Counted from the first letter of the stretch, positions 2,661-32,852 are shown. The stretch: 43,860 nt of DNA from Chthoniobacteraceae bacterium (GCA_031409655.1 JANNXQ010000095.1:1-43860), one strand, 5' to 3'. Numbers and translations: made by a program. Notes: generated from the sequence alone by a model not told the origin.

Positions 2661-3341
2661 TCAGGCGTCGAGCCGGTAGCCGAAGCCGCGCACCGTCTGC
2701 ACTTGCTTGCCGACCGGGCCGAGCTTTTCGCGGAGGCGGCGCAGGTGGGTATCCACGGTGCGCAGCTCGATCTCGCTTTCCGCGGGCCAGACCTTGGCCA
2801 GGAGTTCCTCCCGGCTCAGGACGTGGCCGGGGCGCTCCAGGAAAGCGCACAGGAGCCGGTATTCGATCGAGGTCACCTGGATCGGCGCGCCTTTGATCGT
2901 GACGACGTGCTTCTTGCGGTCGATCGCGATGTTTCCCGTCTCGAGCAGGTCGCTGTTCTCGAGAGGATTTGAGCGCCGCCGGAGGATGGCTTTCACCCGC
3001 AGCACGAGTTCCCTCGGGCTGAAGGGCTTCGTCATGTAGTCATCGACGCCGAGTTCAAAGGCGAGGATGCGATCGACTTCGTCCGCCCGCGCCGTGAGCA
3101 GGAGGATGGCGATCGCCGCCGTCGCCGTTTGCCGCTTCAGCTCGCGGCAGACTTCGATGCCGGTCATCCCGGGCATCATGATGTCCAGGACGATGAGCGC
3201 CGGCTCCTCGCGCCGGGCCTGGGAGAGTGCCGTCGAGCCGTCCATCGCCGTGGAAATGCGGTAGCCGGCGGCTTTCAAATTCGTGCCGACGAGATTGAGA
3301 ATGTCGTTTTCGTCGTCGGCGATCAGGATGTGGCTGCTCAT
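2661..3341 (-). CDS. OmpR/PhoB-family response regulator, PhoB-like
   Basis: Receiver domain (ADDE, LDIMMP, KPFS) plus winged helix with [14 protein letters not shown] and TVRGFGY, close to the PhoB recognition helix. Confidence 0.93.
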
Positions 3342-3477
3342 CGGTTCGTGAAAACTGGCAGTGACTTGTCACGAACGTGAGGCGCAGGCGTTACAATGTG
3401 ACGAACTATCCCGGGCTGGCGAGGGGAGCGCTGGGAAGCGCGCGGGGAGTCCGCCACCCCGGAGGAATGTCTTTTGA

Positions 3478-3495
3478 TTGTTACATTGAGGTCGC
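3478..3495 (+). promoter_or_regulatory. Pho-box-like tandem repeat upstream of PEP-CTERM gene 1
   Basis: TTGTTAC-ATTG-AGGTCGC, 11-bp period, about 105 nt upstream of ATG 3602. Confidence 0.4.
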
Positions 3496-3601
3496 GAAGT
3501 CTCCACACGTGCCGGGCAAGTTTATCAGTGAGCCGAAGGCGGGAATTTAGCCCCCGCCCGGCACGGCTCTCCCAAAACCTACAAAGCAATTCCATAAATA
3601 A

Positions 3602-4468
3602 ATGATCAAAGCCCCTAAACTCCTCGCTTTCGCGGCGCTCGCCGTCAGCGGACTCGCAGTCGCTCCTGCGGTCGCGCAAAATCCCGCCTTCGACTACGGC
3701 GACCTCGTTCTAGGCTTCCAAGCCACCGGCGGGACCGGCAGCGGAAGCTACCTTCTCGCCCGGATCGGTGTAGCCAGCATCCTCCGCGATGCGGCTGGCA
3801 CTATTTCCCTCGCCAATATCGGTGCTGATTTGACGACAGCATTTGGCGCCAACTGGTTTGAGCGTACCGACCTTTACGTTGGGGTGGCTGCGATCGGCAG
3901 CAACGATGAATTCAACGGCTATTTCCAGAATGGTGATCCCGACCTTACTCCTTACATCGGGATTCCGCGCCAGTCCGTTGGTGTTGCGGGCACCGCTGGT
4001 TCGTTTGCACCCATCCTCAACGGTGCGGCGACGCAGCAGGCGGCGAGTGCCATCTTCGCGGCACACAGTATCTTCGAGGCCGCTGGCACTGGTACGGTTT
4101 CGAGTATTTCCAAAGGCTTCAATCTTACTGACTACGACGATCAAAACCCGATCGCCGCAGGTGTCCAAGGCACTGCTTACGATGTCTTCGCGGGTGGCAC
4201 GCAAGTCGTCCTCACCGCTGGGTTGTTTGGCAATGTGGGTGGCATCAATGCGGAGGCCGCGCTCGATCTCTACCGCATCCAGCGTTTCAACGACATTCCC
4301 GGCCAGTTTGGTCTCGGCCAGCCGACAGACGTTGGCACCTTCGAAGGCACCGTCGTCATCAATAGTGCAGGCCAAGTTTCTCTTGTCTCGGTTCCGGAGC
4401 CAACGACCTTCGGGCTCCTTTCCGTCGGTGCGGCCATCGTAGGTCTCGCCCGCCGTCGGCGCCGGTAA
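3602..4468 (+). CDS. PEP-CTERM sorting-domain surface protein (paralog 1)
   Basis: Sec signal peptide (AVA-Q); C-terminal VPEP + hydrophobic helix + RRRRR. Confidence 0.93.
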   Translation: MIKAPKLLAFAALAVSGLAVAPAVAQNPAFDYGDLVLGFQATGGTGSGSYLLARIGVASILRDAAGTISLANIGADLTTAFGANWFERTDLYVGVAAIGSNDEFNGYFQNGDPDLTPYIGIPRQSVGVAGTAGSFAPILNGAATQQAASAIFAAHSIFEAAGTGTVSSISKGFNLTDYDDQNPIAAGVQGTAYDVFAGGTQVVLTAGLFGNVGGINAEAALDLYRIQRFNDIPGQFGLGQPTDVGTFEGTVVINSAGQVSLVSVPEPTTFGLLSVGAAIVGLARRRRR

Positions 4469-4512
4469 AAGGAGTGATGCGGTAATTTGCGTCAATAAGT
4501 TATATCGCACAT

Positions 4513-4554
4513 GCCGCTGCATCGCTAATCCCGGTGCAGCGGCGCCTGTTTTTT
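4513..4554 (+). terminator. Probable intrinsic terminator
   Basis: Stem GCCGCTGCATCG/CGGTGCAGCGGC followed by GCCTGTTTTTT. Confidence 0.55.
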
Positions 4555-4767
4555 GCAATTTGAGGTTGGTTAAACCGATCTTTCTGGCGACCGCTGGCAC
4601 GTCACCGAATCGGTGAGCCAGCGTCCCGACTCACTCGAATTCGCAAACCCCAGCTTTGATGAACCTGACGTCCGTCCGATGGTTTCGCTACCGTCCTCGT
4701 TTTGAGCGTTCCGCCAAAACCCAGCACCACTCAGCGCGCCTGAGTCACCTTTTCACCTACCGTCACA

Positions 4768-6606
4768 TTGAATAACATCACCCCGCCCCTTCCAGAAAAG
4801 CGACTGCGCGATCATGAACTAATCATCGAGCGTCACGGCTGGCAGAAATTTGCCCACTGGCTACGGACCCTTCCCGGAAGGCTGTCGGTAGCAATCCTCG
4901 TGGCGGTGATGATCCTCGTCTGGACGGCGCCGACGATCAATCGAGCGGCCAAAGTCTGGCGGGTGAAGAAATTGATCGCACAGTCCCAAGTGGCGCAGAA
5001 GGCGGGTGACGAGGTCGCGGAAACAAGGTTTCTCCAGGAATCCTTGAATCTTTTGCCGGCACACGCACTTACCCTCCGGGCGCAGGCACAATATCATGAG
5101 CGGCGAGGCGAAACCGCAGCGCTGGCCGCTTACCGCCAGCTCCTCGGCAACGAGGACGTTACTACGGATGACGCCGTCCGTGCCTGCCGTCTCGTCGCTT
5201 TGCGGGGCTCGCGGGACATGTGTGAAAAAATCCTTGAGCTCGCGACGCGAATTCAGGGCACGGGCGAACATCCCGCACTCCTCGCACTCCGCGCTCGTAC
5301 GAAGGCGTCGGTCAATGCGTGGAGCGAATCACTGGCTCTTTCAGAAAAGGCCGTCGAACAGGCCAGGAGCGGGGCTTCGGAGAAAATGCTCCTCGCGACG
5401 ACCTTGCTCCGGGCGGCCGATCACGTCGCCGAAGGCGAGGTTTTCCCAATGGCGGAACGAGCCGTCGCTTTGCTCGACGCACTGGCCACGAGCCCGGATG
5501 AAATCGGTGTGGAGGCGCTTAGCGCCCTGATCTCGCTCGCCCCTCAGCCTGCGGCGGTGAAATTGTTTGCTGGCCGCAACGTCAATGCGTGGATAGAAGC
5601 GGCGGAGAGCAATTCGAAAGCCAGCCCGAAGCTGCGCGTTCTGGCCTGGACCCTTCAGTTCGTCGGGAAACGCGAAGAGTCAGAAAAGTCCCTCGCGGCC
5701 TTTCGCGAAAAGTGGCGTGAATCCCCGCTGCCCGAACGTCTTGAGGCGGCCCGCTGGCTGAATCAGAACGGCCATCCGCGGCTGTGCCTCGGACTCACTT
5801 TCCCGGAGAAGGATACTTCGGCGGATTGGTTCCTCGTCCACCTCGACGCCCTCGCGGCCCTTCGCCAATGGCCAGCGTTGCTCGAAAATCTGGACGCCGG
5901 AACTGGTCAGGCGGCGGCGATGTCCGGCGCGCTCCGCTCGCTTTTCCGGATCATTGCGCGTGCGGCATTGCACGAGCCAGTCAATGTCGAAGAGGCATGG
6001 CGTGAAATTCAGCTCCAGCTCCAAGGCGATCCTGTCCCAACACAGTTATTCATTGCCCAATACGCCGAAAAGACCGGCGAATTCAAGCAGGCCGCGACCG
6101 CCTACCAGCGGATCCTTGACCTTTCGACGACTTCATCCCTCGCTCACAATTTGAGTCGGGAAGCGAAGCTTGTCTGTTACACGGGACTTTTGCGCAGCCT
6201 GCCGATTTCCGCGCCCCTCTCGGAGGTGCTACAAATTGTCGAACTACTCGCAAATGAGTTTCCGGAACTCGAAGAAGCGCGCTACGATACCATCTATCTT
6301 CGGACCCTTGCTGGTAAGTTAAATGACGAGGACCGTGCGGAGGTTGCAAAGTTCCTGGCGCGGCCGCCGGTGGCACCGAAGCTCATCGCGGCAGCGGCGC
6401 TCATTGAACTTCAATCGGGGAATGCCGCCGTGGCGCACAAACTCTACGAAGACATCAAAATCGACTGGAACTCCGCGCTCGACCGCGTCAAGGTTGTGCG
6501 GGTCGCCGTGTTGGCAGCCGCTGGTCGCGCGGAGGAAGCGCGGGAGATGCGGGCAAAAATTAAGGAAAGCTATCTGCGCCCGGAAGAAGTGGCCTTGCTC
6601 CCCTGA
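4768..6606 (+). CDS. Membrane-anchored TPR-like alpha-helical repeat protein
   Basis: 612 aa, one N-terminal TM segment, then Ala/Leu-rich helical repeats (e.g. AQYAEKTGEFKQAATAYQRIL). TTG start uncertain. Confidence 0.75.
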   Translation: MNNITPPLPEKRLRDHELIIERHGWQKFAHWLRTLPGRLSVAILVAVMILVWTAPTINRAAKVWRVKKLIAQSQVAQKAGDEVAETRFLQESLNLLPAHALTLRAQAQYHERRGETAALAAYRQLLGNEDVTTDDAVRACRLVALRGSRDMCEKILELATRIQGTGEHPALLALRARTKASVNAWSESLALSEKAVEQARSGASEKMLLATTLLRAADHVAEGEVFPMAERAVALLDALATSPDEIGVEALSALISLAPQPAAVKLFAGRNVNAWIEAAESNSKASPKLRVLAWTLQFVGKREESEKSLAAFREKWRESPLPERLEAARWLNQNGHPRLCLGLTFPEKDTSADWFLVHLDALAALRQWPALLENLDAGTGQAAAMSGALRSLFRIIARAALHEPVNVEEAWREIQLQLQGDPVPTQLFIAQYAEKTGEFKQAATAYQRILDLSTTSSLAHNLSREAKLVCYTGLLRSLPISAPLSEVLQIVELLANEFPELEEARYDTIYLRTLAGKLNDEDRAEVAKFLARPPVAPKLIAAAALIELQSGNAAVAHKLYEDIKIDWNSALDRVKVVRVAVLAAAGRAEEAREMRAKIKESYLRPEEVALLP

Positions 6607-6756: not shown

Positions 6757-8448
6757 TCACGGTTTGAGAATCGTTGGACCTACCTGCGCGATGACGCCCT
6801 GTAAGTCGGCGAGAGCGGTGCTTTCAGCGAAGCCATCACTCCCGTCCGATAAGTCAGCGGGCAAGTAAGTGGAAAAGGACACGAGCGCCCAGCGATGCTT
6901 CACGTTCCTAAAAGCAGACTCCCAATGAGTCATAAAAACGTGGCCGAAATGGTCGGCGGCAGCGACACCGTGGGCACTCTGGAACCAGAAGACGTGGATG
7001 CCGCGCCGACGCATCATCCGCCCGGTCGGTGGATCTTTCTCGTTCATGAAGAGGCGCAGCATGGTGGCATCGATCTCTCGACCGGCTACTTGCACCTTGA
7101 TCACCCGCTCGTCGAGGATGCGCCAGCCTTGGCCGACTGCGCAAGCTTCCGGCTGGTGCAATCCACGCCCCGCCACCCCATCGAGCACCACTGCGACCTG
7201 TGTGGGCAGGGTCGTGCGGCTCGTGTACATCATGCGAACCATCGTGACGTCGGCGGGGAGGCCACCGGCACCGCGCTCGAGATCGGTGATGGGTAGTTCC
7301 GTGCCTTGGGCCTGACCGATGCTGCGTGGCAGATCCATCGTCACACCCGCTTCGCCGGGGGAATGTTTATTCCCAGCGGAGGCGCAGAAGCCCAGCACCG
7401 CGCCACCGAAGGTCATTGCCACCATTGCTCGCACGACGGTGACCCGGAGGCTGTCGTCCCCCGCGCGATCACCGGGGCCGCTTGGCAGCTCTGCATTGCG
7501 GTTCCAGCGCGCACGCTCGAGCAGCGAACAGAGGCCAAACATTCCGGCCAAGGCCACCGCAAAAACTGTCACGCCGGCGAGTTGATGGAACCAACTCGTC
7601 TCTTCCCCGGTCGGCGTCAGTTTTCCGACGGCGAACTCCTCTCCCAGCCAGACCGCACCGAAAGCGAGCAGCACCAAGCGGACGATGTTCCCCGCGAGGG
7701 CGAGGGGTAAAGCACTGAGCAAGAGCACCCCGCGCGGCAGCGAGCGGCGGAGAAACCAATAACCGGAAAACGCGGCCAGCATGAGCAGTGCGTACAGCGA
7801 ACGAAGCCCGCTGCATGCCGCAGCCACGTCGAGCTTGAAGCGCGCACCCTCCGCGATGGCATTCGGCAAATCGGCAGCGGAAAAGACAGCAGTCCCTCGG
7901 CTGACCGCGGCCAGATCCATGAAACTGAGCAGTTTTGCCGTCAGGCTTGCCGCGATCACGCGCATGGGAACGGCGAGTTGGGAATCAAGGTAGGGATTCG
8001 GCCACATGAAAACCAGAAACATCCAGGGAAATATCAACACCCACATCCAAACCCAGCCACACAACCAGACGATCAAGCCCGCCAGGACAATCTGCGTCGC
8101 GGCAAACCCGAGGGAGACGCTGTCCGCCCTGTAGCCGAACCAAAAAACGAACCCCCCCACCAAGAGAATGCCGAGGCCACTCGCATGTCCCCGCAGAGGC
8201 AAGGTCTCCAACTGCGCACGGCTTCGCCACGCAAGCGCGAGGCTGATCAGCGGAACGAAGGGACAGAAAAGCCACTCCCCTGTTTGATTGGTGGCCAGTA
8301 TCTGCGCCCAGTCTGCGAACACGCTGACTTTCTCCGAAAATTGCCCGATCTTGTAAGGCCACCAAAGGAACAGGAGTGCCATCACCGCGACCGCGGCCGT
8401 CCAGCGCAGCGAGGAGCGGACGAAGGAAAGAGAAGCAGAGGAATGCAT
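6757..8448 (-). CDS. Exosortase fused to a C-terminal EpsI-like domain
   Basis: Multi-TM N-half with the catalytic triad context ACSGLRS, NIVR, FHQ; C-half carries the EpsI-type HQPEACAVGQGWRI motif. Confidence 0.92.
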   Translation of the reverse strand: MHSSASLSFVRSSLRWTAAVAVMALLFLWWPYKIGQFSEKVSVFADWAQILATNQTGEWLFCPFVPLISLALAWRSRAQLETLPLRGHASGLGILLVGGFVFWFGYRADSVSLGFAATQIVLAGLIVWLCGWVWMWVLIFPWMFLVFMWPNPYLDSQLAVPMRVIAASLTAKLLSFMDLAAVSRGTAVFSAADLPNAIAEGARFKLDVAAACSGLRSLYALLMLAAFSGYWFLRRSLPRGVLLLSALPLALAGNIVRLVLLAFGAVWLGEEFAVGKLTPTGEETSWFHQLAGVTVFAVALAGMFGLCSLLERARWNRNAELPSGPGDRAGDDSLRVTVVRAMVAMTFGGAVLGFCASAGNKHSPGEAGVTMDLPRSIGQAQGTELPITDLERGAGGLPADVTMVRMMYTSRTTLPTQVAVVLDGVAGRGLHQPEACAVGQGWRILDERVIKVQVAGREIDATMLRLFMNEKDPPTGRMMRRRGIHVFWFQSAHGVAAADHFGHVFMTHWESAFRNVKHRWALVSFSTYLPADLSDGSDGFAESTALADLQGVIAQVGPTILKP

Positions 8449-8772
8449 AATGGGGAGGCAAGAGAGGTTTCGCGGGCAGTGCCTTAGCTGGTAGCAAAGC
8501 CTCGCCGCTCTGGCGCAAACGGTTTGGCTTCCGCGGATAAGACGGAGAAGTGCCGCAGGCCTGTGAACACCGTGACCAGAGTCTTCATGAGGAGTGGAGT
8601 CGGAGTTACGGAGCGCTCTACTGGAGCGCTAAACAATCTCCAGATTAGCAATGACGGACCGTCCGGTGAAGCGACGATTCGGTGACAACGGCGCGTCCGA
8701 ATGAAGACGAAAGACGATCTTTTCGAGCAGGGAGCAGCAGCCCGCGATGGCGGCCTGCGCAGGAATCTAATC

Positions 8773-8790
8773 CTGTCACGAAAACGTTAC
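8773..8790 (+). promoter_or_regulatory. Pho-box-like tandem repeat upstream of PEP-CTERM gene 2
   Basis: CTGTCAC-GAAA-ACGTTAC, 11-bp period; compare consensus CTGTCAT-N4-CTGTCAY. Confidence 0.55.
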
Positions 8791-8918
8791 TTTGCAGTCG
8801 TGAGACCTCCATGCGCCCCATCCATACCTTGCCCCGATCGAGCTGCCCGGCCCTCCGACAACTCGATCGACCAAACTAGTAACCACATCACATCGCAGCA
8901 ATATCGATAACCATATCA

Positions 8919-9818
8919 ATGAATAACACCTCAAAGTCTCTCGCCCTGGCAGCTCTCGCCTTCGGCGGGCTCGCGCTCTCCTCCGCGAGTGCCCAAAACC
9001 CTAACTTCACCTACGGCGATCTCGTTCTCGGCTTCCAAGCCTCGGGCGGCGTCGGAAGTGGGAGCTACCTCTTCGTCAATCTCGGTGCAGCCGGTCTGAT
9101 CCGTGATTTCACCTCGAACACGCAGTTGATCAACGGCAGTCTATCGGGCCTGGCGAACCAGCTTGGCTTGACCTTCGGTGCAGGCTGGGCCAACCGCACC
9201 GATCTTTTCATGGGCGCGGGGGCGATCGGCAGTAACGATGAGTTCAATGGCTACTTTGGATTCAACGATCCAGATTTGACTTCTTACGTGAGCGTCCAGC
9301 GTTCGAGCGTCGGAACCGCGGGTAACGCGGGTTCCTTTGCGCCGATCCTCAACGGAGCCGCGACGCAGGATGTTGCGAATGGCCTCACCGCCGGACAGGC
9401 CACCTATGAGTTCCAGTCCACGGGCACGATCGCGGTCATCTCGAAAACAGCCAGCTTCACCGACTGGGACGACCAAAATCCCGTCAGCGGAACCACCCAG
9501 GGGACAGCGATCGGTGGCGTTTTTGCCGCGGGCATCCAGACCACGTTTGGTGCCGGGACCTTCGGCAACATTGGCGGCGTCAATGCCGAGGCCGCGCTCG
9601 ATCTCTACCGCATCCAGCGCTTCAACGACATCCCTGGCCAGTTCGGCTTCGGCGCGGCGACGGATCTCGGAACCTACGAAGGCTCCATCCTCATCGACAG
9701 CCTCGGCAACGTCAGCCTTGGCAACTTGGTGGCTGTGCCTGAGCCGTCCCTCTCGCTGCTCGTGGCGGGTGGCATGCTCGGCGTCATCGCGCGCCGCCGC
9801 CGGACCGCAACGGCATAA
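8919..9818 (+). CDS. PEP-CTERM sorting-domain surface protein (paralog 2)
   Basis: Signal peptide (ASA-Q); VPEP-TM-RRRR tail; collinear with 3602-4468. Confidence 0.93.
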   Translation: MNNTSKSLALAALAFGGLALSSASAQNPNFTYGDLVLGFQASGGVGSGSYLFVNLGAAGLIRDFTSNTQLINGSLSGLANQLGLTFGAGWANRTDLFMGAGAIGSNDEFNGYFGFNDPDLTSYVSVQRSSVGTAGNAGSFAPILNGAATQDVANGLTAGQATYEFQSTGTIAVISKTASFTDWDDQNPVSGTTQGTAIGGVFAAGIQTTFGAGTFGNIGGVNAEAALDLYRIQRFNDIPGQFGFGAATDLGTYEGSILIDSLGNVSLGNLVAVPEPSLSLLVAGGMLGVIARRRRTATA

Positions 9819-9892: not shown

Positions 9893-11278
9893 ATGAAACT
9901 CAGATTCCTCTTTGCGGCCGCCCTGGCCGTCATTTCCACGGCTGCGCACGCGCAGACCGAATACAACATCACCGGCGCCACCGCGTTCCGGACTGCGACG
10001 ATCAACTCCATCATCAATGGTTACGGGGGCCTTGGTGCCTGCGGCGTCATTCATTCCGGCGCGGCTGGAGCCCAGTCCGGGGCCAACGCCATCTCGTTTT
10101 TCGGAACGTTTGGCGGCATCCCAAACACGACGATCCGCTGCCGCTTCTCCGGTTCCACGGAAGGCATCCGCGATCTCGTGGGCACCATCGTCCCTGGCAC
10201 CCCGAATGACGTGTTCTACTATCCGGACGCGCTCATTCCAGCGATCGGCACGATCACGGCGCTCAACCAGAACAGCAACCCGGTCGGCGCGAATGTCGCG
10301 TTCAAGCCGGACGTCGCTTTCTCCGACGTGCAGCAGACGAACAGCCCCTACCGCACGCCGGTCCTCGGACCAGCCGATTCCCGCGTCGGTGTGGTGACCT
10401 TCGTCTTCTGCAAGAGCGAGGGTTCATCCGCTAACCTGACCAACGTCACCGCCCAAGCCTGGCGGGCCACGCTGACCAGCAACCGCGGCGTGCCGCTGAA
10501 CGTTTACACTGGCCTCGCCGCCGACCAAACCGGTCGTGTGCTTGCCACCGGTCGTAACGACGGTTCCGGCACCCGTGCGGTGTACCTTATCGAACCCGGC
10601 TACGGCGTCTCGAGGCTCGTCAATCAGTTCAAACTCGCGGCGGACGGCTTTAATGGCGTCGGCGCGGGCGTCGGTGGCACGGCCGCTGGCGGCGTCGGAG
10701 CGGGCGGCATCGCCCGTTCCCTGCAGCTCTGGCCAGCAAATGACGCGCAGGACGTGAACAACAACTCGGTCCTCTGGAATACTCTGACCAACGGCAACGG
10801 TGGTTACTTCTCGAGCAGCAATACCTCGCTCCTCCTCCAGGCAAACACCAGCAGCGTGCGCGTCCTTGGGCCCGGTGGCACCGATCTCCCGGTCTCGGGC
10901 AGCTATACTCCCGCCACCTCGGCCGGCAGCCCTCGTGCGATCTCGGTCGTCGGTTTTGTCGGCACGAACGACGGCGTGACCGTCGCGGCCAATGGCGGCG
11001 GCATCCTCAGCTACAACGGTGTGCTCATCACCCCGGTGGCTGTCGGAGTTGACCCGACCGGCCTCGTGCCGGCGGATCGCTACAAGGTGACCAACGGCAG
11101 CTACACCGTGTGGAGCTACGAGCGCCTCTACACTCGCGGCACACTCAGCGTCAACCAGCAGGCCATCGATACGGCCCTCCGCGCCGCCATCCCCGGCGGT
11201 CTTGCGACCAACGGCATCGCCCTCTCGGCGATGACCGCGGTGCGCACCAACGACGGTGATATCGTGACCCAGCCCTAA
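9893..11278 (+). CDS. Exported PstS/DING-like phosphate-binding-fold protein
   Basis: Signal peptide (AHA-Q); ITGATAF, FSD and RNDGSGT correspond to PstS GAGATF, ASD and RSDGSGT; C-terminal YTVWSYERLY. Confidence 0.72.
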   Translation: MKLRFLFAAALAVISTAAHAQTEYNITGATAFRTATINSIINGYGGLGACGVIHSGAAGAQSGANAISFFGTFGGIPNTTIRCRFSGSTEGIRDLVGTIVPGTPNDVFYYPDALIPAIGTITALNQNSNPVGANVAFKPDVAFSDVQQTNSPYRTPVLGPADSRVGVVTFVFCKSEGSSANLTNVTAQAWRATLTSNRGVPLNVYTGLAADQTGRVLATGRNDGSGTRAVYLIEPGYGVSRLVNQFKLAADGFNGVGAGVGGTAAGGVGAGGIARSLQLWPANDAQDVNNNSVLWNTLTNGNGGYFSSSNTSLLLQANTSSVRVLGPGGTDLPVSGSYTPATSAGSPRAISVVGFVGTNDGVTVAANGGGILSYNGVLITPVAVGVDPTGLVPADRYKVTNGSYTVWSYERLYTRGTLSVNQQAIDTALRAAIPGGLATNGIALSAMTAVRTNDGDIVTQP

Positions 11279-11333
11279 TCTGGCTCGCAGCCTGATGCAG
11301 TCCGCGCTTTAACTCGCGGAAGCACTCCTCAAG

Positions 11334-11372
11334 ACTGGCGCCGGGTCAATCCCCGGCGCCAGTTCTTGTTTT
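11334..11372 (+). terminator. Intrinsic terminator
   Basis: Perfect 12-bp stem ACTGGCGCCGGG/CCCGGCGCCAGT followed by TCTTGTTTT. Confidence 0.7.
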
Positions 11373-25294: not shown

Positions 25295-25920
25295 GGTTTG
25301 ATCTTCTCGCCGGTAAGTTTGTCGCCGTAATCTTGGATCAGATTTTCAAACTTCACGCGGGTGAGCCCGACGAAGGGCTCTCGTGCGGTGAGCGCGGTCC
25401 CGAGGCCAAACTTCTGGTAACGATCCAGGATCTCATTCCCGAGTTTGAACATTGCAGCGTTCTTCGCCTGGTGGTCCGCGACTTTGCGGTTCAGCACCAC
25501 GACTTCTGCCGCAGCCCGGGCGCGCTTTGCTTCCGTGGCTTCGGCGAGCGCCGCCGCCTTCTTCTGCGAATCCTTCCACTTCTCAAGGGACTCCTGCAGG
25601 CGGGCGATTTCGAGGGATTGGTTCTCCAAACGTTTGTTGAGCCCGTCCATGGCGGCTTGAGACGCCTTCTCCCGCGATTCGCCATCCTTGGTTAGCGCCT
25701 CCACCTTTTCGGTCAATGCCTTGACACTTTCTTCCAGAGTAGCCTTCTCCGCCTGGAGAGTTGCCCGCTCCGTCTCCGCAGTGCGGAGCTGCAGCATTGT
25801 CGCCCGAAGACTGTCGCGCAGCTTGGTCTCGGCGGGATTGGGAGCGTTCGGCGCTTCAGCGGCCATCGCGGAACTGGCCATGAGGCAGGCTAAGAGGAGG
25901 GAAGGGTAAAAGCGGGGCAT
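25291..25920 (-). CDS. Exported coiled-coil protein of the TPS/TonB cluster
   Basis: Signal peptide, long heptad region, C-terminal REPFVGLTRVKFENLIQDY; tightly coupled to both neighbours. Confidence 0.8.
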   Translation of the reverse strand: MPRFYPSLLLACLMASSAMAAEAPNAPNPAETKLRDSLRATMLQLRTAETERATLQAEKATLEESVKALTEKVEALTKDGESREKASQAAMDGLNKRLENQSLEIARLQESLEKWKDSQKKAAALAEATEAKRARAAAEVVVLNRKVADHQAKNAAMFKLGNEILDRYQKFGLGTALTAREPFVGLTRVKFENLIQDYGDKLTGEKIKP

Positions 25921-25923
25921 GGG

Positions 25924-27876
25924 TTAAAATTTTGCGCTGAGATCGAAGAGGATGACGTCGTTCTTGGCCGGTGGGCCGGCGATGCTATCTGCGCTAAACC
26001 ATTTCAAACCGAGGGAGACGTTCTTGGAAATCGCGACGGCGCCGGAGAGGGTGAAGCCTTTCACATTCGTGCCACCGAGGCCGAAGTCCGAGTCATTGAA
26101 GCCATCAATGACCGCATCGGACTCCACGTGGCGGTAGTTAAAACCCAGACCCCAATTTCCGCGCTCCGAAAGATCGGCTGTGCCAACATTCAACCCAACA
26201 ACCCATGCAATATCCCCACCGTCGAATGCGCCTGCGCTGTTAATGCCGCCAGCCGGACCGCGGTTGTTCACCGCGATCTTGTTTATCTCTCCTTTGTTAA
26301 AAGCAAGGTTTTTGATCCACTCGCCTTGCAGAGTGATGCGCACGGGCTCGAAGCCGTCATACGTCAGCTTGCCGGTGATCGCCAGATCTTCGAAGGGCGT
26401 CGCAAGGCCGAAGTATTGGAATTGATTGGTGGTGCCGAAATTGTTGTTCGCATTCGCCACGATGTTTCGCAGCGGGCGGTAGGAATTCCCCTTTTGGGCG
26501 AAGGACGGGCGAGTGTTGTCAGTGTTTCCGGCGTCCTGAGCGTTCAGCGGCGTGTAAGGGTCCGACAGCCGTCCTTCGACGTTCTCAAAGTAGTAATAAG
26601 CGACAGAGCCGCGAAAGCTGATGCCTTTGCCCACTTTAACGTCGGCGCCGAGCTGGCCGCCGTAAAGATACTTGTCGTCACTCTGGAACTTATCCGGCCT
26701 GTTTGAAGAAAAGGTGAAGTCTGTATTGAAGACAGGGAATGCGCCCCCTGCCACAAACGGAGTGACGCCTTTTGCCACTTCGTAGCGTGCGGCAAGCGCC
26801 ACGCCATCGAACCCGACGTCCTCATCCCAAATGATGTCCGTCGAGAAGAATGGGTTGTCGAAACGACCGGCGCTAATCGCGAGGTTCTTGTTCGGTAAGC
26901 CCCCGGCTTCGTAACGGATGAACCCGCGATCCAGCCAGATCGCGTATTTGCTGAAGTTTCCACCCTGGCCCTGATTTGCGAGACCCAGGCTTTGGTTGGT
27001 AGTGACGGGGGAGCTATTTTCGCCTGTGGCGATGCGGAGGCCAACGCTGAAGCCTTCTGTAAGATCAACCCCAACACCGAGCCGCGCCCTAAGCCGCACT
27101 CTTTGACGGTCCTGATCCACATTGATCTGGGGCGAAAACACCGTGCCGCTGACGTCGAACGGTGAACCCGTATTGATCGCCTGGAAGTTTGGGAATGCAC
27201 CGGTGTTGTCATTCCCGTCCGGAAAGGCATCCACTTCCGCCCGGACGCGGACATCGCCGAAGACGTGGAAGCGTTGCGTCCATTCGGGTGCGGCATTCGG
27301 AGCTATCCAATTCTCGGTCTTGGCCTGCGCCAGGACCTCTTCCTTGATCTGTTCGCGCATCTGCTTCTTCACCACCTCCGGGATGTACGTAACGCGCACG
27401 GCGCCTCCCGATGGCATTTGGTCGGGAGCCGGCGAAGCACCTTGCGCGGCGGTGACTGCCTGCTGGACAGCGATCTGCACGATTGCTTCCTGCGAAGCGG
27501 TCGCCTGTTGCCGCGCTTCGTCAGCATCATTTTGAGCCATCTTCATCAGGTCCGCCGAATCATCGGGGCTGAGAATGCCCTTCTGGACGAGTCGATTGAT
27601 AAGATTAATGACAACGCTCTCCGACTTTCCTGCCGGAGCCGGAGCGGCGGCGACGTCGGTCAGTGCTCGATCTGTGTCTGCGGCGGCGGCCGCATTGGGT
27701 GTGGCGGCGAGAAGGATGCGATCAATGCCATCCAGCGCTGGAAGCGGGACCGATTCCGAAGGATCCATGATCCGACCGGCAAAGACCTGCGAAGCTGCGA
27801 TCAGGCACCAGGAAGATGCGGCGAGCAACGCGAAGGGGGGACGGCGGCGGACACATGGAACGGAAAGCATGAGCAA
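25924..27876 (-). CDS. Putative porin (outer-membrane beta-barrel with N-terminal periplasmic region)
   Basis: Signal peptide; INLINRLVQKGIL helical segment; amphipathic strands (RVRLRARLGV, DSDFGLGGTNVKG); terminal Phe (DLSAKF). Alternative start ATG 27870. Confidence 0.85.
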   Translation of the reverse strand: MLMLSVPCVRRRPPFALLAASSWCLIAASQVFAGRIMDPSESVPLPALDGIDRILLAATPNAAAAADTDRALTDVAAAPAPAGKSESVVINLINRLVQKGILSPDDSADLMKMAQNDADEARQQATASQEAIVQIAVQQAVTAAQGASPAPDQMPSGGAVRVTYIPEVVKKQMREQIKEEVLAQAKTENWIAPNAAPEWTQRFHVFGDVRVRAEVDAFPDGNDNTGAFPNFQAINTGSPFDVSGTVFSPQINVDQDRQRVRLRARLGVGVDLTEGFSVGLRIATGENSSPVTTNQSLGLANQGQGGNFSKYAIWLDRGFIRYEAGGLPNKNLAISAGRFDNPFFSTDIIWDEDVGFDGVALAARYEVAKGVTPFVAGGAFPVFNTDFTFSSNRPDKFQSDDKYLYGGQLGADVKVGKGISFRGSVAYYYFENVEGRLSDPYTPLNAQDAGNTDNTRPSFAQKGNSYRPLRNIVANANNNFGTTNQFQYFGLATPFEDLAITGKLTYDGFEPVRITLQGEWIKNLAFNKGEINKIAVNNRGPAGGINSAGAFDGGDIAWVVGLNVGTADLSERGNWGLGFNYRHVESDAVIDGFNDSDFGLGGTNVKGFTLSGAVAISKNVSLGLKWFSADSIAGPPAKNDVILFDLSAKF

Positions 27877-27903
27877 CGGAGGAATGTGGGGCGGCGGGCC
27901 GCA

Positions 27904-28740
27904 TTATTTTTGGCGGCGGGCGTTGAGTCGGAGCTTGATGGGCATCTTCATCCCGGCGGGTGGCGCTTCGGAAAGTTGGACGCCGGGAAGCACTTCGTTC
28001 TTGATCGCTTCGTCCACGGACGGATCGCCGGAGGAACCCATCAGTTGACCGCGCGTGATCTTACCCGAGCCATCCACCCAGATATGGGCGACGACGCTCA
28101 TGCTGGCCGCACGCGTCCGGCTGTTATTGCGCAGAGCCGAAGTGATCGGACTTACTGCCTGACTCGCGTACCAGGCAAACATGTCGCCACCACCCCCGCC
28201 GGTGCCATTGCCACCGCCGCCGTTGCCGCTGCGTCCGAGTCCGCTCATGCCTGGCCCCTTGCCGACGAGCCCGGTGCCGAGAGGCGCGGGCTCGTCCACG
28301 GGCTTCGGCTTCGCGGCTTCAGGTTTGGGCTCCGGCTTCTCCATTGGAGCCTCATCGAGTTTCTTTTCCTCCTGCTTTGGTGGGGGCGGCTGGACCTTTG
28401 GTGGGGGTGGCGGCGGTGGTGGCAGGGGCTGGATTCTGACGACCTGTTGCGGAGGTGCTTTCGGTGGGGCTTTTGGTTTGGCTGTGGCGGGCTTTCCAAA
28501 GATCGCGTAGCCCGCGCCGCCGAGAAGCAGGAGGCCTATGATGATCGGAACGCGGAAGCGCTGGAGGAAGCCGTCCTCATCGTCATCGTCGGGGCGGGGC
28601 GGTTTCGGTGCGCCCTTGCGCGAGGGCGAGTGCTGAAGTGGGCGGTCGATTTGACGCGATACCGCACGAGCGGTCGGCTGCGGGAGTTCCGCGACGGTGC
28701 GAGCCGTCAGTGTTTCAGTGGTATCCAGGTTGTTAGTCAT
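27904..28740 (-). CDS. TonB-like energy transducer
   Basis: Single TM, Pro/Lys/Glu-rich spacer, Gly linker, C-terminal TonB-type domain (IWVDGSGKITR...SSGDPSVDEAI). Confidence 0.85.
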   Translation of the reverse strand: MTNNLDTTETLTARTVAELPQPTARAVSRQIDRPLQHSPSRKGAPKPPRPDDDDEDGFLQRFRVPIIIGLLLLGGAGYAIFGKPATAKPKAPPKAPPQQVVRIQPLPPPPPPPPKVQPPPPKQEEKKLDEAPMEKPEPKPEAAKPKPVDEPAPLGTGLVGKGPGMSGLGRSGNGGGGNGTGGGGGDMFAWYASQAVSPITSALRNNSRTRAASMSVVAHIWVDGSGKITRGQLMGSSGDPSVDEAIKNEVLPGVQLSEAPPAGMKMPIKLRLNARRQK

Positions 28741-28752
28741 GGCGTGAGGCGG

Positions 28753-29157
28753 TTATTTTTTGGAAGGTAGGGTTGCGAGGGAGACTTCGAGGTCGAGCCG
28801 TCCGAGGACGGTGATGACATCCATCACGACCTGGTATTGCGTCTGGCGGTCGCCACGGACGACGGCGGGAAAGATGGGGGTCTTCGCTTTTACCGCGGCC
28901 AGCTTGCTCTCGAGCTGCTCGAGCGTGACGGGGAGCGTGTTGAGAAAGACCTTGCCTTCGTTATTCACCGTGATGGCTTGCATCTTCGGGCCATCGATCG
29001 GCTTTGCTGACGGGGCGCCGGCCTTGGGCAGATTTACCTTTACCCCCTGCACGCCGGCCGTCGTCATGATGATGAAGATCAGCAGGAGGACCAGATACAG
29101 GTCCACCATCGGGGTGACATTGATGTCGTCGTAAGACTTATTGTCGCCCGCTTGCAT
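28753..29157 (-). CDS. exbD: ExbD/TolR biopolymer transporter
   Basis: INVTPMVDLYLVLLLIF with the conserved TM Asp; VVRGD...YQ.VMDV. Confidence 0.93.
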   Translation of the reverse strand: MQAGDNKSYDDINVTPMVDLYLVLLLIFIIMTTAGVQGVKVNLPKAGAPSAKPIDGPKMQAITVNNEGKVFLNTLPVTLEQLESKLAAVKAKTPIFPAVVRGDRQTQYQVVMDVITVLGRLDLEVSLATLPSKK

Positions 29158-29159
29158 GG

Positions 29160-31034
29160 TCAGTCGTTTGCCGTCGGGTAAAATTCCGCGATCTTCGCTA
29201 CGAATTCGTCGATGAAGACCTGCATGTCGCTGATCGCGTCCTTGATCCGTGAGCTAATGTAGCTGTAGGCAAAAAGCGCGGGGATCGCGACGACCAGACC
29301 TGCGACGGTGGCGAGCAGCGCTCCGGCGATACCAGGAGCGATGGAGTTCACCTCGACCTCGCCGGATTTTGCGATGACGGCGAAGGTGATCATCACGCCG
29401 ATGACCGTGCCGAGCAGCCCGAGATACGGGCCGCCGGCGATGCCGATCGTGAGGAAGACGAGGTTACTATTGAGGCGCTGAATTTCGCGCACGAGACCGC
29501 CATCAAGGGTTGTCTTAATCGCCGCGATGGAGCGACCGGAGAGGCCCGTGAAGCCCTCGCGCGCATTGTCGAGTCGATGCCGGATCTCCACTGAGCCGAT
29601 GTGATAGATGTGGTAGAGCGGCGATTGGCGCATGAGTTTCATGGCCTTGCTGTTGGCCGTCCCGCCCATGCTCTTGATGCTTTCTTCGTCGCTGTGGTCC
29701 AGCGCGGTGAGGTCGCTGGAGAGATGTTCCCACTGCTTGAGGAAAGCGGTGGTGGCTTTGCTGACCTTGTTCAAGTAAAGGAACTTTGCGATCGCCACAC
29801 CCCAGCCGATGACGGCGAGGATCGCACAAAGGACGATGACGACCCAGCCGTCGAAGGTGAGCGACTTCGAGATGTCTTTGATGAGGGTGAGATGTTCCGC
29901 GAGCTCACCCTGGCCGCCGTGGCCACCGCCGCCCTCGGCGGTTTCATCGTCGGCGAAGGTGAGTAACTTCGCCGCCTTATCCGCATTGCCCTGAGTGACG
30001 GCGCTAAGTTTGAGCCAGCCTGGTGGGCGCATGGCCTTGGAGATTTGTAACTCGTCCAACTCGCCCACGAACCCAACTCGATCGCCGACGGTGACGGTGT
30101 CTTTCCCGAGCGACGACGGGCTGTTCAGCGCGGGCAGGACGGTATTGGCCGTCGCGTAGCGCTCGCCATCGAGTGAAACGACGATCTGCGCTCCGGTCGC
30201 GACGACGGCGAGATGCCGCCAGGCATTGATTTCGAGGGGCTCGCCGGCATTGGAGCGCTGCGTGCCCGCGGCGCCGATCGCCTCCACGAATGGGACGCCA
30301 TTATCCACCCCGATGATCAAGCCACGGTCCCCATCGCGCCGACTAAAGAGGATCCCGCCAGGCTGCAGCGCCGTGGGTTTGATCCAGGCGGACCACGTCA
30401 GCGCACTGCCTTCCGTCCAGGCCAGCGAAGGCGACCCGGGAATCGTCACCCCGGTGGCGCCGGTCAGGCGCAGGCCGCCGGCGATCAGGGAGCCCGTGGC
30501 CGGTGTGCCTGGACCTTCCGCACTATTTCCCCCGGATGAAGAATCCACCGGAGCGCCAGTTTCGGAGAAGTGATAGACGAGCGCCGTATCCGCGTCGTAG
30601 GTGCCTTTGGGATCATTGGCGGGTTCGGCGTTCGCGTTTCCGTAGTAGAGCCAGAAAGTCGTCTGCGCGCCGGGAGCCACGTCCGGCACTTTTACCCACG
30701 CATAGGCCTCGTAGAGCAGCGAGTCGAAGCGCTCGAGGTGATACTTGAGGACGGTCTTGTCGTCGGCTGCGATGAAGCGGATGTCGCCCCCATCTTCCTT
30801 GGCCGAGCCAAACTGAAAATTGCCGTCGAAGAGCCGGACGAGCACCACACTGGTACCCACGGGATCGGTGATGGCGCCGCCTGCGGGCGTGGTGTCAGCG
30901 GTGACTTTCTTCCGGATCGTCCACTCGGGATTCCACCACGCCTGGGCATTCCCACAGATGCTCAGGAAAGCCAGGACCGCGACGAAAATCCGGGCCGGAG
31001 CGAGCGCTAGAAGTGGGAACGAGGATCTGGTCAT
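29160..31034 (-). CDS. DUF2341 + LamG-like + MotA/TolQ/ExbB proton-channel fusion
   Basis: N-terminal WWNPEW..RK...DIRF...WVKVP...LYYGN (DUF2341); WSAWIKP...WRHLAVV...GELDELQI (LamG); GPYLGLLGTVIGVM and IAPGIAGALLATVAGL (ExbB). Confidence 0.92.
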   Translation of the reverse strand: MTRSSFPLLALAPARIFVAVLAFLSICGNAQAWWNPEWTIRKKVTADTTPAGGAITDPVGTSVVLVRLFDGNFQFGSAKEDGGDIRFIAADDKTVLKYHLERFDSLLYEAYAWVKVPDVAPGAQTTFWLYYGNANAEPANDPKGTYDADTALVYHFSETGAPVDSSSGGNSAEGPGTPATGSLIAGGLRLTGATGVTIPGSPSLAWTEGSALTWSAWIKPTALQPGGILFSRRDGDRGLIIGVDNGVPFVEAIGAAGTQRSNAGEPLEINAWRHLAVVATGAQIVVSLDGERYATANTVLPALNSPSSLGKDTVTVGDRVGFVGELDELQISKAMRPPGWLKLSAVTQGNADKAAKLLTFADDETAEGGGGHGGQGELAEHLTLIKDISKSLTFDGWVVIVLCAILAVIGWGVAIAKFLYLNKVSKATTAFLKQWEHLSSDLTALDHSDEESIKSMGGTANSKAMKLMRQSPLYHIYHIGSVEIRHRLDNAREGFTGLSGRSIAAIKTTLDGGLVREIQRLNSNLVFLTIGIAGGPYLGLLGTVIGVMITFAVIAKSGEVEVNSIAPGIAGALLATVAGLVVAIPALFAYSYISSRIKDAISDMQVFIDEFVAKIAEFYPTAND

Positions 31035-31095
31035 GCGTGGTGAATCGGGCAGAGCCTAATGAGCCTCGCGTTCAAGACGGAACGATGGCGGGAGT

Positions 31096-31113
31096 GTTAA
31101 GATTGGGTGACTA
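31096..31113 (-). promoter_or_regulatory. Pho-box-like repeat upstream of the exbB fusion gene
   Basis: Minus strand TAGTCAC-CCAA-TCTTAAC, 11-bp period, about 60 nt upstream of ATG 31034. Confidence 0.35.
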
Positions 31114-31127
31114 AGCGCCGCTCGCGC

Positions 31128-32771
31128 CTAGAAATCCGCCCACAAACGGAAGGTCACGAGGACATCGTGGGCGTCCGAGGATCCCGCGCTCGTGAGCGGC
31201 ACGCCGGCGTCGAGCGAGCCGTTGAAATGCTCGCGGAATTGAATGCGGCTGCCGAGCCCGACGCTCGCTAGCTCAAAGCGATCCTCCTGCTCCGGCAACG
31301 ACTCGCGGAGCGCGAGCGCCCCGAGATCCGCAAAGGCATAGAAACGCCATTCGCCGTTCTTTTCACTGAGCAAGGAAGGGCTGCGCAGCTCGAGCGAACC
31401 GAAGAGGCCATTGTCGCCGAGCGCCGCGGATTCGAGATAACCTCGGGCTGTGCCCAGTCCGCCGCCGGCAAACTGCTCGCTGTTGATCAGCGGCTGATTT
31501 GCGATCTGCCCCTGCAACTTGCCGAACAGCTCGAATCCCTTTGGCAGGTCGCGAGTGTGCGCAAGGTCGCTGCGGAAGTGGACGAAGTTCCCATCGGCGC
31601 GGAAGCGTTTCGCTTCGAACTCCACCGAGTCGCTGCCGGTCCCGCGGAAGCCGAGGGTCAGATTTGCGCCGAGTTCCGTGGTCATTTTCTTCCCGGCCCA
31701 AGTGGCATTGTACCCGAGGCTGAATGGGTAATAGGTGATCGGCGTCTGGGTGATCGCGCCGGCCAGATTTACATCTTCAGCAAAGTGCTTGTAGTCGAGG
31801 CCCAGGCTCAGGGTGTGGTAAAACGCGTCTCGGGCGGGCAGCGCGATCAAAGCGCGGGCGCCGATGATCTCCCCGCGTCCCGCGACCGCCGCGCCCCCGA
31901 GTGTGGAGACGTTGCTGTCCTGCTTGGTCCCGGACACGATGACGCTGAGCGCGGGAATGTTTTCGAACCGCGCGAGGTAGTAACCGGAGAAGACCTTCGC
32001 ATCGTCGAGGCGCTCGGGCGCGAGTTGAAAGCTCAAACCCAGGGAATGTCCCCGCTGCCACAGGTTCGAATAGCTGATCGATCCATTGACCCGCAGGGCC
32101 GTCGTATCGGCGCTGTAGCGGTTGTTGATTTCGAGGCTCCCATGGAGCGGCAGCGTGTCCTTGACGGTCAGATCGATATCGACGGTCCCCGGCTCCACTC
32201 CCGCCCGCAATTCTGGCGTGACCTTGAGATCGGGATGCTGATTGAGCTTCACGATATCCCGCGTGATGTCGTTGAAGTTCGGCACATTCCCCGGGGCGAG
32301 CGAGGGTGCGCGGCGTTTGATCTCGGCCAGCGAAAAGTAGCGCGATCCTTTCACCCGCAACTGCCCCACCGTCGCCTCCACCACCTGCAGCAGCACCACC
32401 CCGCGCCGCATCTGCTGCGGCGGCACCTGCACCGAGACGGTCTGGAAACCCTTCTCCTTATAGGCAGCCTCCAGCGCCGCTCGCGCCTGCTCGACATCCG
32501 CCTCCGTCCGCCCTGGCCCGAGGAAAGGATAGACGGCCTCGCCGATCTCGATCTCGGACAGCTTCTTCGTCCCGATCACCCGATACTCGCTGATATAAAC
32601 ACCGCGCATGGCTCGCGTCACCTCGTCCTCGACTGGTTTTGAGGCCGCGGGAGGACCCTCCGCCGCGAAAAGCGGTGCCTGAACCAGGAGCACGGCGGCC
32701 AGCGGCAGCCCCGCCCACAGGCAACGGCGGCGACTCCCGAAAGGGTCGCGACGTTTCACTTTGAAAGACAT
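31128..32771 (-). CDS. TpsB (ShlB/FhaC/HecB family) two-partner secretion transporter
   Basis: POTRA motifs (ALEAAYKEKGF, VEATVGQLRVKGSRY), loop-6 motif ARGYLE, C-terminal Phe. Start ATG 32771 gives a signal peptide. Confidence 0.93.
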   Translation of the reverse strand: MSFKVKRRDPFGSRRRCLWAGLPLAAVLLVQAPLFAAEGPPAASKPVEDEVTRAMRGVYISEYRVIGTKKLSEIEIGEAVYPFLGPGRTEADVEQARAALEAAYKEKGFQTVSVQVPPQQMRRGVVLLQVVEATVGQLRVKGSRYFSLAEIKRRAPSLAPGNVPNFNDITRDIVKLNQHPDLKVTPELRAGVEPGTVDIDLTVKDTLPLHGSLEINNRYSADTTALRVNGSISYSNLWQRGHSLGLSFQLAPERLDDAKVFSGYYLARFENIPALSVIVSGTKQDSNVSTLGGAAVAGRGEIIGARALIALPARDAFYHTLSLGLDYKHFAEDVNLAGAITQTPITYYPFSLGYNATWAGKKMTTELGANLTLGFRGTGSDSVEFEAKRFRADGNFVHFRSDLAHTRDLPKGFELFGKLQGQIANQPLINSEQFAGGGLGTARGYLESAALGDNGLFGSLELRSPSLLSEKNGEWRFYAFADLGALALRESLPEQEDRFELASVGLGSRIQFREHFNGSLDAGVPLTSAGSSDAHDVLVTFRLWADF

Positions 32772-32833
32772 GGCTGTGCTGATTTCACCAGCGCCCTTCG
32801 TCTCGCGCTCGCGGCGTGCGGGCAAGCCCGGCA

Positions 32834-32852
32834 CTGTCACAATCCTGTGACA
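32834..32852. promoter_or_regulatory. Palindromic Pho-box-like operator upstream of tpsB
   Basis: TGTCACA-ATCC-TGTGACA is a perfect inverted repeat and also GTCAC-N6-GTGAC on both strands; about 63 nt upstream of tpsB. Confidence 0.6.

Follow-up and report, generated by a model that had tools for sequence, protein, structure and literature searches.

Among described systems, the closest to the one considered here is the pdtA (PA0690) and phdA-pdtB-exbB2-exbD2-tonB4-PA0696-PA0701 locus of Pseudomonas aeruginosa PAO1, part of the PUMA3/sigma-VreI regulon, whose pdtA promoter is bound by PhoB (PMC4971064) and whose TonB set and PA0696-PA0700 are described, in the available text, as uncharacterised (PMC7035377). 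Under phosphate (Pi) starvation, PstS and DING proteins are located on surface appendages of this organism that depend in part on Hxc, a type II secretion system (T2SS; PMC2242829, PMC3949141) and promote its adhesion (PMC3949141); PA0690 has 0 occurrences in the accessible portions of these two accounts. In Haemophilus influenzae, a surface protein belonging to the two-partner secretion (TPS) type captures a nutrient and hands it to a TonB-energised outer-membrane importer (PMC5422565, as far as its accessible text goes). Here we describe a locus on contig C95 of a Chthoniobacteraceae genome (6.85 Mb, 63% GC), contained in a stretch of 43,860 nucleotides (GCA_031409655.1 JANNXQ010000095.1:1-43860; hereafter the window), which joins a TPS, TonB and porin block of the P. 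aeruginosa kind to PEP-CTERM proteins and a protein with the fold of the phosphate-binding protein PstS.

The initial annotation of the window had likened the locus to the pdtAB-exbB2D2 region of P. aeruginosa, and the likeness holds at the level of gene content: TpsA/TpsB, ExbB/ExbD/TonB, a putative porin followed by a helical protein, a nearby PstS-fold gene and Pho boxes are common to both, judging from the accessible parts of the published accounts (PMC7035377, PMC4971064, PMC2729926, PMC9769906). The comparison is one of gene content, made through two annotated loci (L124 and L127), and not of aligned proteins. A block of the pdtAB type, comprising tpsB-exbB-exbD-tonB-porin-helical protein and a giant TpsA, is found in the window, in 19 of 20 verrucomicrobial regions centred on the porin and on annotated proteobacterial plasmids. 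Relative to PAO1, the window is without the extracytoplasmic function (ECF)/VreR genes, an adjacent Hxc T2SS, YbjN and a PPIase, and has a distinct 461-residue PstS-fold family where PAO1 has LapA/DING; extra to it are head-domain PEP-CTERM proteins, a membrane-anchored protein of 257 residues, a Sel1 protein and a PhoB paralog. We regard the cluster as a PEP-CTERM variant of the pdtAB-exbB2D2-tonB4-PA0696 kind and not as a member of its ECF/Hxc form; its core is that of a system known but unexplained in P. aeruginosa. Our tentative reading, which we favour without considering it secure, is that of an apparatus for capturing phosphate at the surface, under Pho control and comparable in its working to HxuABC, made up of TpsA/TpsB, a private motor, the porin, and the PstS-fold and head-domain proteins. 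Searches of the openly readable literature yielded no published account of the verrucomicrobial combination.

Profile scans of the window (Pfam and NCBIfam) agree with the earlier description of 15 contiguous genes between housekeeping genes, here a homospermidine-synthesis gene (NF001980) and rplA, and with its statement that neither a T2SS nor an ECF sigma gene is among them. The minus-strand block, with small intergenic gaps, runs in the order tpsB, DUF2341-LamG-exbB, exbD, tonB, Porin_5, coiled-coil gene, tpsA and Sel1 gene. On the other side lie the PhoB-like gene, the gene for PEP-CTERM protein 1 (PEP1), a gene for a protein resembling tetratricopeptide repeats (TPR-like), an exosortase gene, the gene for PEP-CTERM protein 2 (PEP2), the PstS-fold gene (461 residues) and the membrane-anchored gene (257 residues).

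The PEP-CTERM/PstS-like half and the TPS/TonB half belong together. The initial annotation had treated them as one system and had proposed comparing the neighbourhoods and phylogenetic profiles of the porin and the PstS-like family; co-occurrence, linkage within 30 kb and a common likely Pho box all speak for this view. Among 201 sampled genomes of the order, which are kin and not independent samples, 83 contain both the porin and the PstS-fold gene, nine the porin only, four the PstS-fold gene only and 105 neither. The two genes are at most 30 kb apart in 54 of 54 same-contig pairs, the other 29 pairs being on different contigs, and they track each other within families of mixed presence (13 of 23 genomes each in the host's own family). 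Altogether the module porin is present in 92 of the 201 genomes; elsewhere in the phylum, 8 of 300 genomes have a full-length Porin_5. For porin and head domain the counts are 67 both, 25 porin only and three domain only, and some of the 25 porin-only genomes have the head domain at lower scores. In the best 80 of 160 PstS-fold loci, taken from GTDB genomes with 10-kb flanks and many short contigs, a head-domain gene (70/80), a Sel1 gene (66/80) and tpsA (54/80) lie near the PstS-fold gene. The porin-centred set, 20 regions of 40 kb from 18 genomes that overlap partly with these loci, has the tpsB-to-coiled-coil block in 19 and the coiled-coil gene 3' of the porin in 19; 13 regions have both the PEP-CTERM head and PstS-fold genes, two a PstS-fold gene without an adjacent tagged gene, and five neither. 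When the five were fetched more widely, a PstS-fold gene stood beside tpsA in two, and a third had the full cassette in a second copy of the module. The cassette may lie upstream of tpsB, downstream of tpsA, or inverted; occurring in several orders and orientations and yet linked, it shows that the link survives rearrangement. One complete genome (G409:C1) has three module copies, located near 378, 4412 and 5243 kb, two of them with cassette and phoB-like gene, one of these beside T2SS genes.

The features of the locus are as follows.

2661..3341, minus strand: PhoB paralog without an adjacent kinase (PF00072 and PF00486); accessory, recurrent near the locus
3366..3510, no strand assigned: degenerate half-sites of the box in the gap from which the phoB-like and PEP1 genes diverge (best matrix score 5.6)
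3602..4468, plus strand: PEP1, with signal peptide, head domain of about 240 residues and PEP-CTERM tail (PF07589); duplicate of PEP2
4512..4544, plus strand: terminator-like hairpin 3' of PEP1 (13-pair stem, T tail; consensus match only)
4768..6606, plus strand: TPR-like helical protein with N-terminal membrane anchor; accessory
6757..8448, minus strand: exosortase with EpsI-like C-terminal part (PF09721, PF11984); accessory
8668..8688, minus strand: box-like site on the exosortase side (score 11.9)
8773..8793, plus strand: likely Pho box of the PEP2/PstS-like promoter (score 20.3, matrix trained on other genomes)
8919..9818, plus strand: PEP2, of the head-domain family, directly 5' of the PstS-fold gene (TIGR02595 above cut-off); core
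9893..11278, plus strand: PstS-fold protein of 461 residues, signal peptide without lipobox (fold from predicted model); core
11333..11364, plus strand: terminator-like hairpin 3' of the PstS-fold gene (13-pair stem, T tail; consensus match only)
11388..12161, plus strand: membrane-anchored protein of 257 residues with Pro/Ala linker and conserved C-terminal helical domain (no family match); core
12220..13104, minus strand: Sel1-repeat periplasmic protein (PF08238); core in verrucomicrobial loci
13175..25294, minus strand: TpsA, 4039 residues, with TPS domain, long body, small CBM_5_12-like insert and C-terminal DUF3739 (PF05860, PF12545, weak PF02839)
25291..25920, minus strand: coiled-coil protein with signal peptide, by gene order the probable positional equivalent of PA0697
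25924..27876, minus strand: Porin_5 beta-barrel with N-terminal helical stalk (PF16930, 654 bits)
27904..28740, minus strand: TonB-type protein (PF13103)
28753..29157, minus strand: ExbD (PF02472)
29160..31034, minus strand: ExbB with N-terminal DUF2341 and LamG-like periplasmic domains (PF10102, PF13385, PF01618)
31093..31113, minus strand: box-like site 5' of exbB (score 13.3; not conserved)
31128..32771, minus strand: TpsB, POTRA and ShlB barrel, first gene of the operon (PF08479, PF03865)
32833..32853, minus strand: likely Pho box of the tpsB operon (score 14.1)

A tRNA, an Rfam family, a notable repeat and a sigma-70 consensus promoter were looked for in the window and none was found. The rplA gene (33035-33736) has no rplK upstream; in the host genome, designated G000, rplK lies elsewhere (G000:C32:46952-47365), followed by unrelated genes, and the two are adjacent in G470 and G351 and not within 1.5 kb of each other in G306. 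To the right of the ribosomal genes are a maltokinase-like gene and sulfatase-like genes (35339-36766 and 37204-42257), named by eye and unrelated to the locus.

This layout bears on a quite improbable alternative, namely that the locus holds two separate Pho-regulon units, adjacent through shared regulation and joint transfer and without physical cooperation, the PstS-fold protein then being a periplasmic store or sensor. The two halves have their own promoters, convergent orientation and terminators, cassette order and orientation vary, and the sole apparent fusion of a head domain to a PstS-fold protein (L047:9011-11356) was rejected as a missing stop codon, with the PEP-CTERM tail and second signal peptide retained. 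However, phoB-phoR and the pst operon are not tied to the locus, and the PstS-fold gene is rarely found without the module (4/87), stays within 30 kb through rearrangements and lies in one run with tpsB in four loci.

With regard to regulation, a shared Pho-box-like motif had been reported before four genes. A de novo search of 63 head-domain-gene promoters from other genomes gave the motif aTGTgACGAAATnGTCACA, two GTNAC half-sites 11 bp apart, in 4/4 Gibbs runs, and a matrix trained only on these promoters scores 20.3 at PEP2, 14.1 at tpsB, 13.3 at exbB and 11.9 on the exosortase side, the last being in the top 0.6% of 4659 upstream regions. The motif is thus strong at all four places, the exbB site being unconserved. 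Between the phoB-like and PEP1 genes there are degenerate half-sites (best 5.6) that align in the close relatives L004 and L005, and L006 has a full box at the matching place. Elsewhere in the host genome the matrix scores 16.5 at canonical phoB, 13.0 at pstS, 12.2 at a porin upstream of pstS and 13.9 at a gene that we take to be PlcP-like, each again in the top 0.6% of the 4659 regions. For promoters outside the training set, scores of at least 10 occur upstream of tpsB in 19 of 24 related loci; four of the five tpsB promoters without a box have the cassette directly upstream of tpsB. The corresponding counts elsewhere in the module are 0/26 for exbB, 0/25 for tonB and 2/27 for the porin, and 1.2% of genes in the host genome reach this score. 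The pst operons are box-marked in five of six other genomes, the sixth locus having stopped short of the operon start. Since the motif stands upstream of canonical phoB and pstS as well as of PEP2 and tpsB, it is, from its sequence and placement, very probably a Pho box.

The local PhoB-like regulator, a 55% identical paralog of canonical PhoB, scores 246 bits with TIGR02154, compared with 269 for canonical PhoB (on C12, beside phoR) and a cut-off of 296. By inspection it retains the acceptor Asp and the recognition helix, and a phoB-like gene lies within 10 kb in 10 of the 80 PstS-fold loci. We infer PhoB control of the locus.

The PstS-like identity of the 461-residue protein, asserted from the outset, is upheld by fold and phosphate-site residues, the fold being taken from a predicted model. 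A profile of 75 homologs found one PDB sequence match, a phosphate-binding protein (E 9e-5). The model (pLDDT 92.2) has the two-lobed type II binding-protein fold and matches PstS with a Foldseek E of 2.6e-9 and a VIA Z of 23.0 (rmsd 2.8, 256 aligned; 4lat); among the matches listed, all Foldseek rows at E <= 0.001 are PstS/PBP entries. The motifs of the phosphate site are present (Thr/Phe loop, Ser, Asp and Arg-x-Asp-x-Ser-Gly-Thr): T30, F32, S88, D145, R221, D223, S225 and G226 are invariant in 75/75 homologs and T227 is found in 74/75. We take these residues to be the counterparts of the phosphate ligands of E. coli PstS, a correspondence by motif and not drawn from a residue-level structural alignment. 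On the strength of the model, the protein is predicted to be phosphate-binding, and this is likely. It is about 180 residues longer than canonical PstS; neither ABC genes in the window nor a PF12849 match to the protein were found, so it is not the canonical PstSCAB receptor, and the canonical genes lie on other contigs (pstS on C281, pstCAB-phoU on C99, phoB-phoR on C12). A search for longer relatives found none, which is weak evidence. Membership of the DING/LapA group was considered and rejected: the signature is absent, hhalign against seven proteobacterial binding proteins encoded at loci of this type gave a probability of 3%, and the DING fold match has a Z of about 15.5. A complex prediction for the PstS-fold protein and the head domain gave a score of 0.01 (mark 0.32).

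As with the Hxc-dependent PstS/DING appendages, these are phosphate-binding-fold proteins with signal peptides encoded outside an ABC operon, to judge from the accessible text (PMC2242829, PMC3949141). PstS/DING proteins are made under phosphate shortage, and the box suggests that the same may apply here; in contrast to the appendage proteins, no DING signature is present and the locus is known from its genes alone. Among 66 loci that could be scored, most have directly 3' of the PstS-fold gene a gene similar to that of the 257-residue protein. The protein has no Pfam, PDB or Atlas assignment. Its architecture resembles that of lipase foldase (Lif); Pfam and PDB profile searches gave no match in support of a Lif-like chaperone.

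In the other half of the locus, a TPS-domain TpsA and a POTRA/ShlB TpsB in one operon make up a two-partner secretion system (PF05860, TIGR01901, PF08479, PF03865). The TPS domain of TpsA has structure-sequence matches to those of EtpA and HxuA, and its body is conserved throughout, at 38-69% identity per 100-residue block over 27 homologous regions. The Porin_5 of the module is single copy in its genome. As regards the plug-domain and 22-stranded barrel families of classic TonB-dependent transporters, PF16930 was its only family match, and there was no PDB sequence match. When a profile was built from 28 module porins and tried on the porins that immediately precede pstS in five genomes, it matched those of three (G409, E 7e-30; G234, 1e-25; G264, 4e-20), the matches including the N-terminal stalk, and gave no match to the pst-operon porins of G000 and G347. 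This homology favours phosphate import and disfavours a protein-export pore.

Such an importer would have its nearest working model in HxuA-HxuB-HxuC of H. influenzae, in which haem is the nutrient and HxuC is one of the classic TonB-dependent transporters, whereas here the barrel is a Porin_5 with a private motor. Several points weigh against a Pho-controlled capture apparatus. Genome-wide matches to the box matrix are not above those of column-shuffled matrices (20 sites above 14, compared with 6-36), so that the sites are meaningful through position and not number. The best genome-wide site lies 28 bases upstream of a presumably Dps-like gene (G000:C248:12647-12667), and no strong box was found at PhoD-like or PhoX-like genes or at a T2SS cluster on C195 (best 6.9). 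Boxes of the form GTNAC-n6-GTNAC would fit other regulators of the OmpR family as well. TonB is not required by a phosphate porin of the classic kind, and the host genome already has a porin upstream of pstS. A surface location for the PstS-fold protein is suggested by analogy only, the co-occurrence counts come from related genomes, and in many proteobacterial loci that have the TPS/motor/porin core, the range covered contains no PstS-like gene. The second-best genome-wide box site is upstream of an open reading frame of 73 residues, rich in Gly, Ser and Lys, on C134.

PEP1 and PEP2, the two PEP-CTERM proteins, share 57-58% identity, and both carry the head domain of about 240 residues. The PEP1 head-domain model (pLDDT 90.9) has no Foldseek match at E <= 0.001 and a best VIA Z of 2.9 among 48161 chains; Atlas matches are below 0.9 and unnamed, and a missing PDB match is not proof of a new fold. 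Its profile gathers 1003 clusters at 50% identity. Of 146 newly listed head-domain proteins, 86 have a PEP-CTERM-like tail and 60 do not, which indicates that the domain, and not the tag, is the constant part. Several untagged proteins (P0162, P0163, P0165, P0167; L018, L026, L030, L045, L062) end in a common Asp-rich repeat and a C-terminal beta domain with F-x-R, a region without a Pfam match that may be a sorting signal of Verrucomicrobiota used in alternation with PEP-CTERM. Recurrent neighbours of the cassette in freshwater genomes (L020:4425-7451, L081:14497-15597 and about 18-20 other loci) are a GT2 glycosyltransferase and a large membrane protein that has a C-terminal TPR and by eye looks GT-C/STT3-like; glycosylation of the head proteins is possible. 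Elsewhere in the host genome (G000:C100:18772-38598) there is another TPS cluster, unrelated to this one and with no box found, which has several TpsA-like genes and a 2274-codon frame with a PEP-CTERM end.

In 17 of 27 selected, mostly long, head-domain proteins the domain accompanies Ig, ASH, lectin, TSP3 or choice-of-anchor I stalks, and some proteins have up to four tandem copies. This architecture, in which the domain caps stalks as in adhesins, lends itself to a different and rather unlikely explanation: a phosphate-starvation adhesion appendage, in which a TpsA adhesin fibre bears the head-domain and PstS-fold proteins, and these attach to phosphate minerals or to surfaces that are phosphorylated. 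The role of the motor and the stalked porin would then be to assemble, tension or release the fibre and not to import a solute. It would accord with the extra DUF2341/LamG periplasmic domains of ExbB, with the TPS/motor/porin core that occurs without a PstS-like gene in several proteobacteria, and with the adhesion promoted by the PstS/DING appendages of P. aeruginosa in the accessible account (PMC3949141). The homology of the porin to pst-operon porins and the invariance of the phosphate site in 75/75 homologs count against it; adhesion and capture are compatible and not mutually exclusive.

Tails on the substrates and an exosortase with its catalytic Cys motif are both present, as in a PEP-CTERM/exosortase system. 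With the EpsH/XrtA systems the locus shares signal peptide, PEP motif, membrane helix, basic tail, catalytic Cys, EpsI-like domain and TPR neighbour; unlike them, it is not in an exopolysaccharide locus, its exosortase is not a conserved neighbour, and its substrates carry an uncharacterised head domain. The initial annotation had noted the exosortase and the TPR protein as present in place of a T2SS, and their standing as conserved parts in such a role was not supported: both are sporadic neighbours, the genome has six exosortases, five secretin matches and, on C195, a complete T2SS-like cluster, and a betaproteobacterial locus has a T2SS together with a PEP-CTERM/PstS-like pair. The exosortase scores below every subtype cut-off. 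Its true ortholog lies beside the locus in one of 80 loci (L004, where the PstS-fold protein is 80% identical), and any exosortase in 6/80 loci and 2/20 porin-centred regions, these belonging to at least four clades. In the 201 genomes, 55 have both this exosortase subtype, as defined by the present query, and the porin, 37 the porin only, 26 the exosortase only and 83 neither. A dedicated cognate exosortase-substrate pair was rejected, the ortholog adjoining the substrate in 1/80 loci and the subtype being often without the porin. The TPR-like protein, named from its sequence pattern and paralogy, has no Pfam or NCBIfam match; a 49.5% paralog lies on C98, and it is near the locus in 2/80 loci. 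In the next relatives L005 and L006, phoB, a single PEP gene and the PstS-fold gene follow one another without intervening genes, which suggests that PEP1, the TPR gene and the exosortase arose here by recent duplication and insertion. Neither the exosortase nor the TPR gene is core, both being local additions; the repeated recruitment of exosortases suggests that the tag matters.

Outside Verrucomicrobiota, DUF3739 was found in 18 of the 401 genomes that represent the phylum to which G493 (Lysobacterales) belongs. Twenty proteobacterial loci were fetched, and the 18 readable ones (G893 and G872 being left out) include eight with T2SS genes and many with ECF/FecR-like genes and DING-like binding proteins. 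Several others have the core with no binding-protein gene in the range covered, so that the core can stand alone. In one of the 18 (G522), tpsB is directly preceded by genes for a PEP-CTERM and a PstS-motif protein, next to a T2SS. Four of 12 plasmid matches were opened: the Aquabacterium olei plasmid has PEP-CTERM, PstS-motif, tpsB, tpsA, exbB, exbD, tonB and porin genes in one run, the Methylomagnum locus three secreted proteins, a binding protein and phoU, the Methylosinus locus an ECF set and a binding protein, and that of Cupriavidus a T2SS. The PEP-CTERM and PstS-motif proteins of A. olei, G522 and Methylomagnum gave hhalign probabilities below 1% against the verrucomicrobial families. 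In another proteobacterium (L153, G667:C79:23000-42999), genes of exopolysaccharide type (by eye chain-length, tyrosine kinase and AAA ATPase), such as accompany PEP-CTERM systems, come after the module. L128 (G720:C1:1735000-1754999), of alphaproteobacterial type, has an ECF-controlled module and, just 5' of it, genes that by eye encode a TonB-dependent receptor and a PhoD-like protein, another link to phosphorus scavenging.

These comparisons also bear on the proposal with which the annotation began, a TonB-energised export machine in which the motor and stalked porin (or TpsB) export exosortase-processed PEP-CTERM and PstS-fold proteins in place of a T2SS. We consider it improbable. The host genome has about 45 PEP-CTERM genes (49 pattern matches, a few spurious) and six exosortases, yet one module; 109 of the 201 genomes are without the porin, and 26 of these have this exosortase subtype. 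Moreover, the proteobacterial core exists without PEP-CTERM genes, G522 has a T2SS and a PEP-CTERM pair together, the head domain occurs untagged too, and the relatives of the porin are pst-operon porins.

For the capture apparatus that we favour, the following course can be envisaged. PhoR-PhoB, perhaps through the local PhoB paralog instead of the ECF factor of Pseudomonas, would activate two promoters, that of PEP2 and the PstS-fold gene and that of the tpsB operon. As is usual for these families, TpsA would cross the outer membrane through TpsB, and processing of the PEP-CTERM tail could fall to any of the genome's exosortases. The PstS-fold protein, if it behaves like LapA/DING, would fold in the periplasm and exit by the T2SS encoded elsewhere. 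Head-domain proteins and fibre may then hold it at the surface, and the TonB motor may pull on the stalked porin or the fibre so that phosphate or a phosphorus ligand enters the periplasm, where the canonical PstSCAB would take over.

A more far-reaching possibility, which we regard as doubtful, is that ExbB-ExbD-TonB together with the stalked Porin_5 make up an outer-membrane machine that is driven by protons and has so far gone unrecognised, either a TonB-energised descendant of the pst porins fed by a giant TPS fibre loaded with PstS-fold proteins and head proteins of new fold, or one that exports these proteins. If true, it would be the scaffold of the Pseudomonas PstS/DING appendages and the first outer-membrane route for one class of proteins with the PEP-CTERM tag. 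The way in which PEP-CTERM proteins pass the outer membrane has been described as unknown, and the locus bears on this question; both this crossing and the role of the motor and porin on the pdtAB side become addressable through it. What the variant adds to the system is phosphate as a likely ligand, a likely regulator, an ancestry for the porin and a head-domain family that comprises about 1000 clusters and has no relative of solved structure. The host order is abundant in soil and freshwater, and the locus may be a common phosphorus-gathering route of oligotrophic bacteria.

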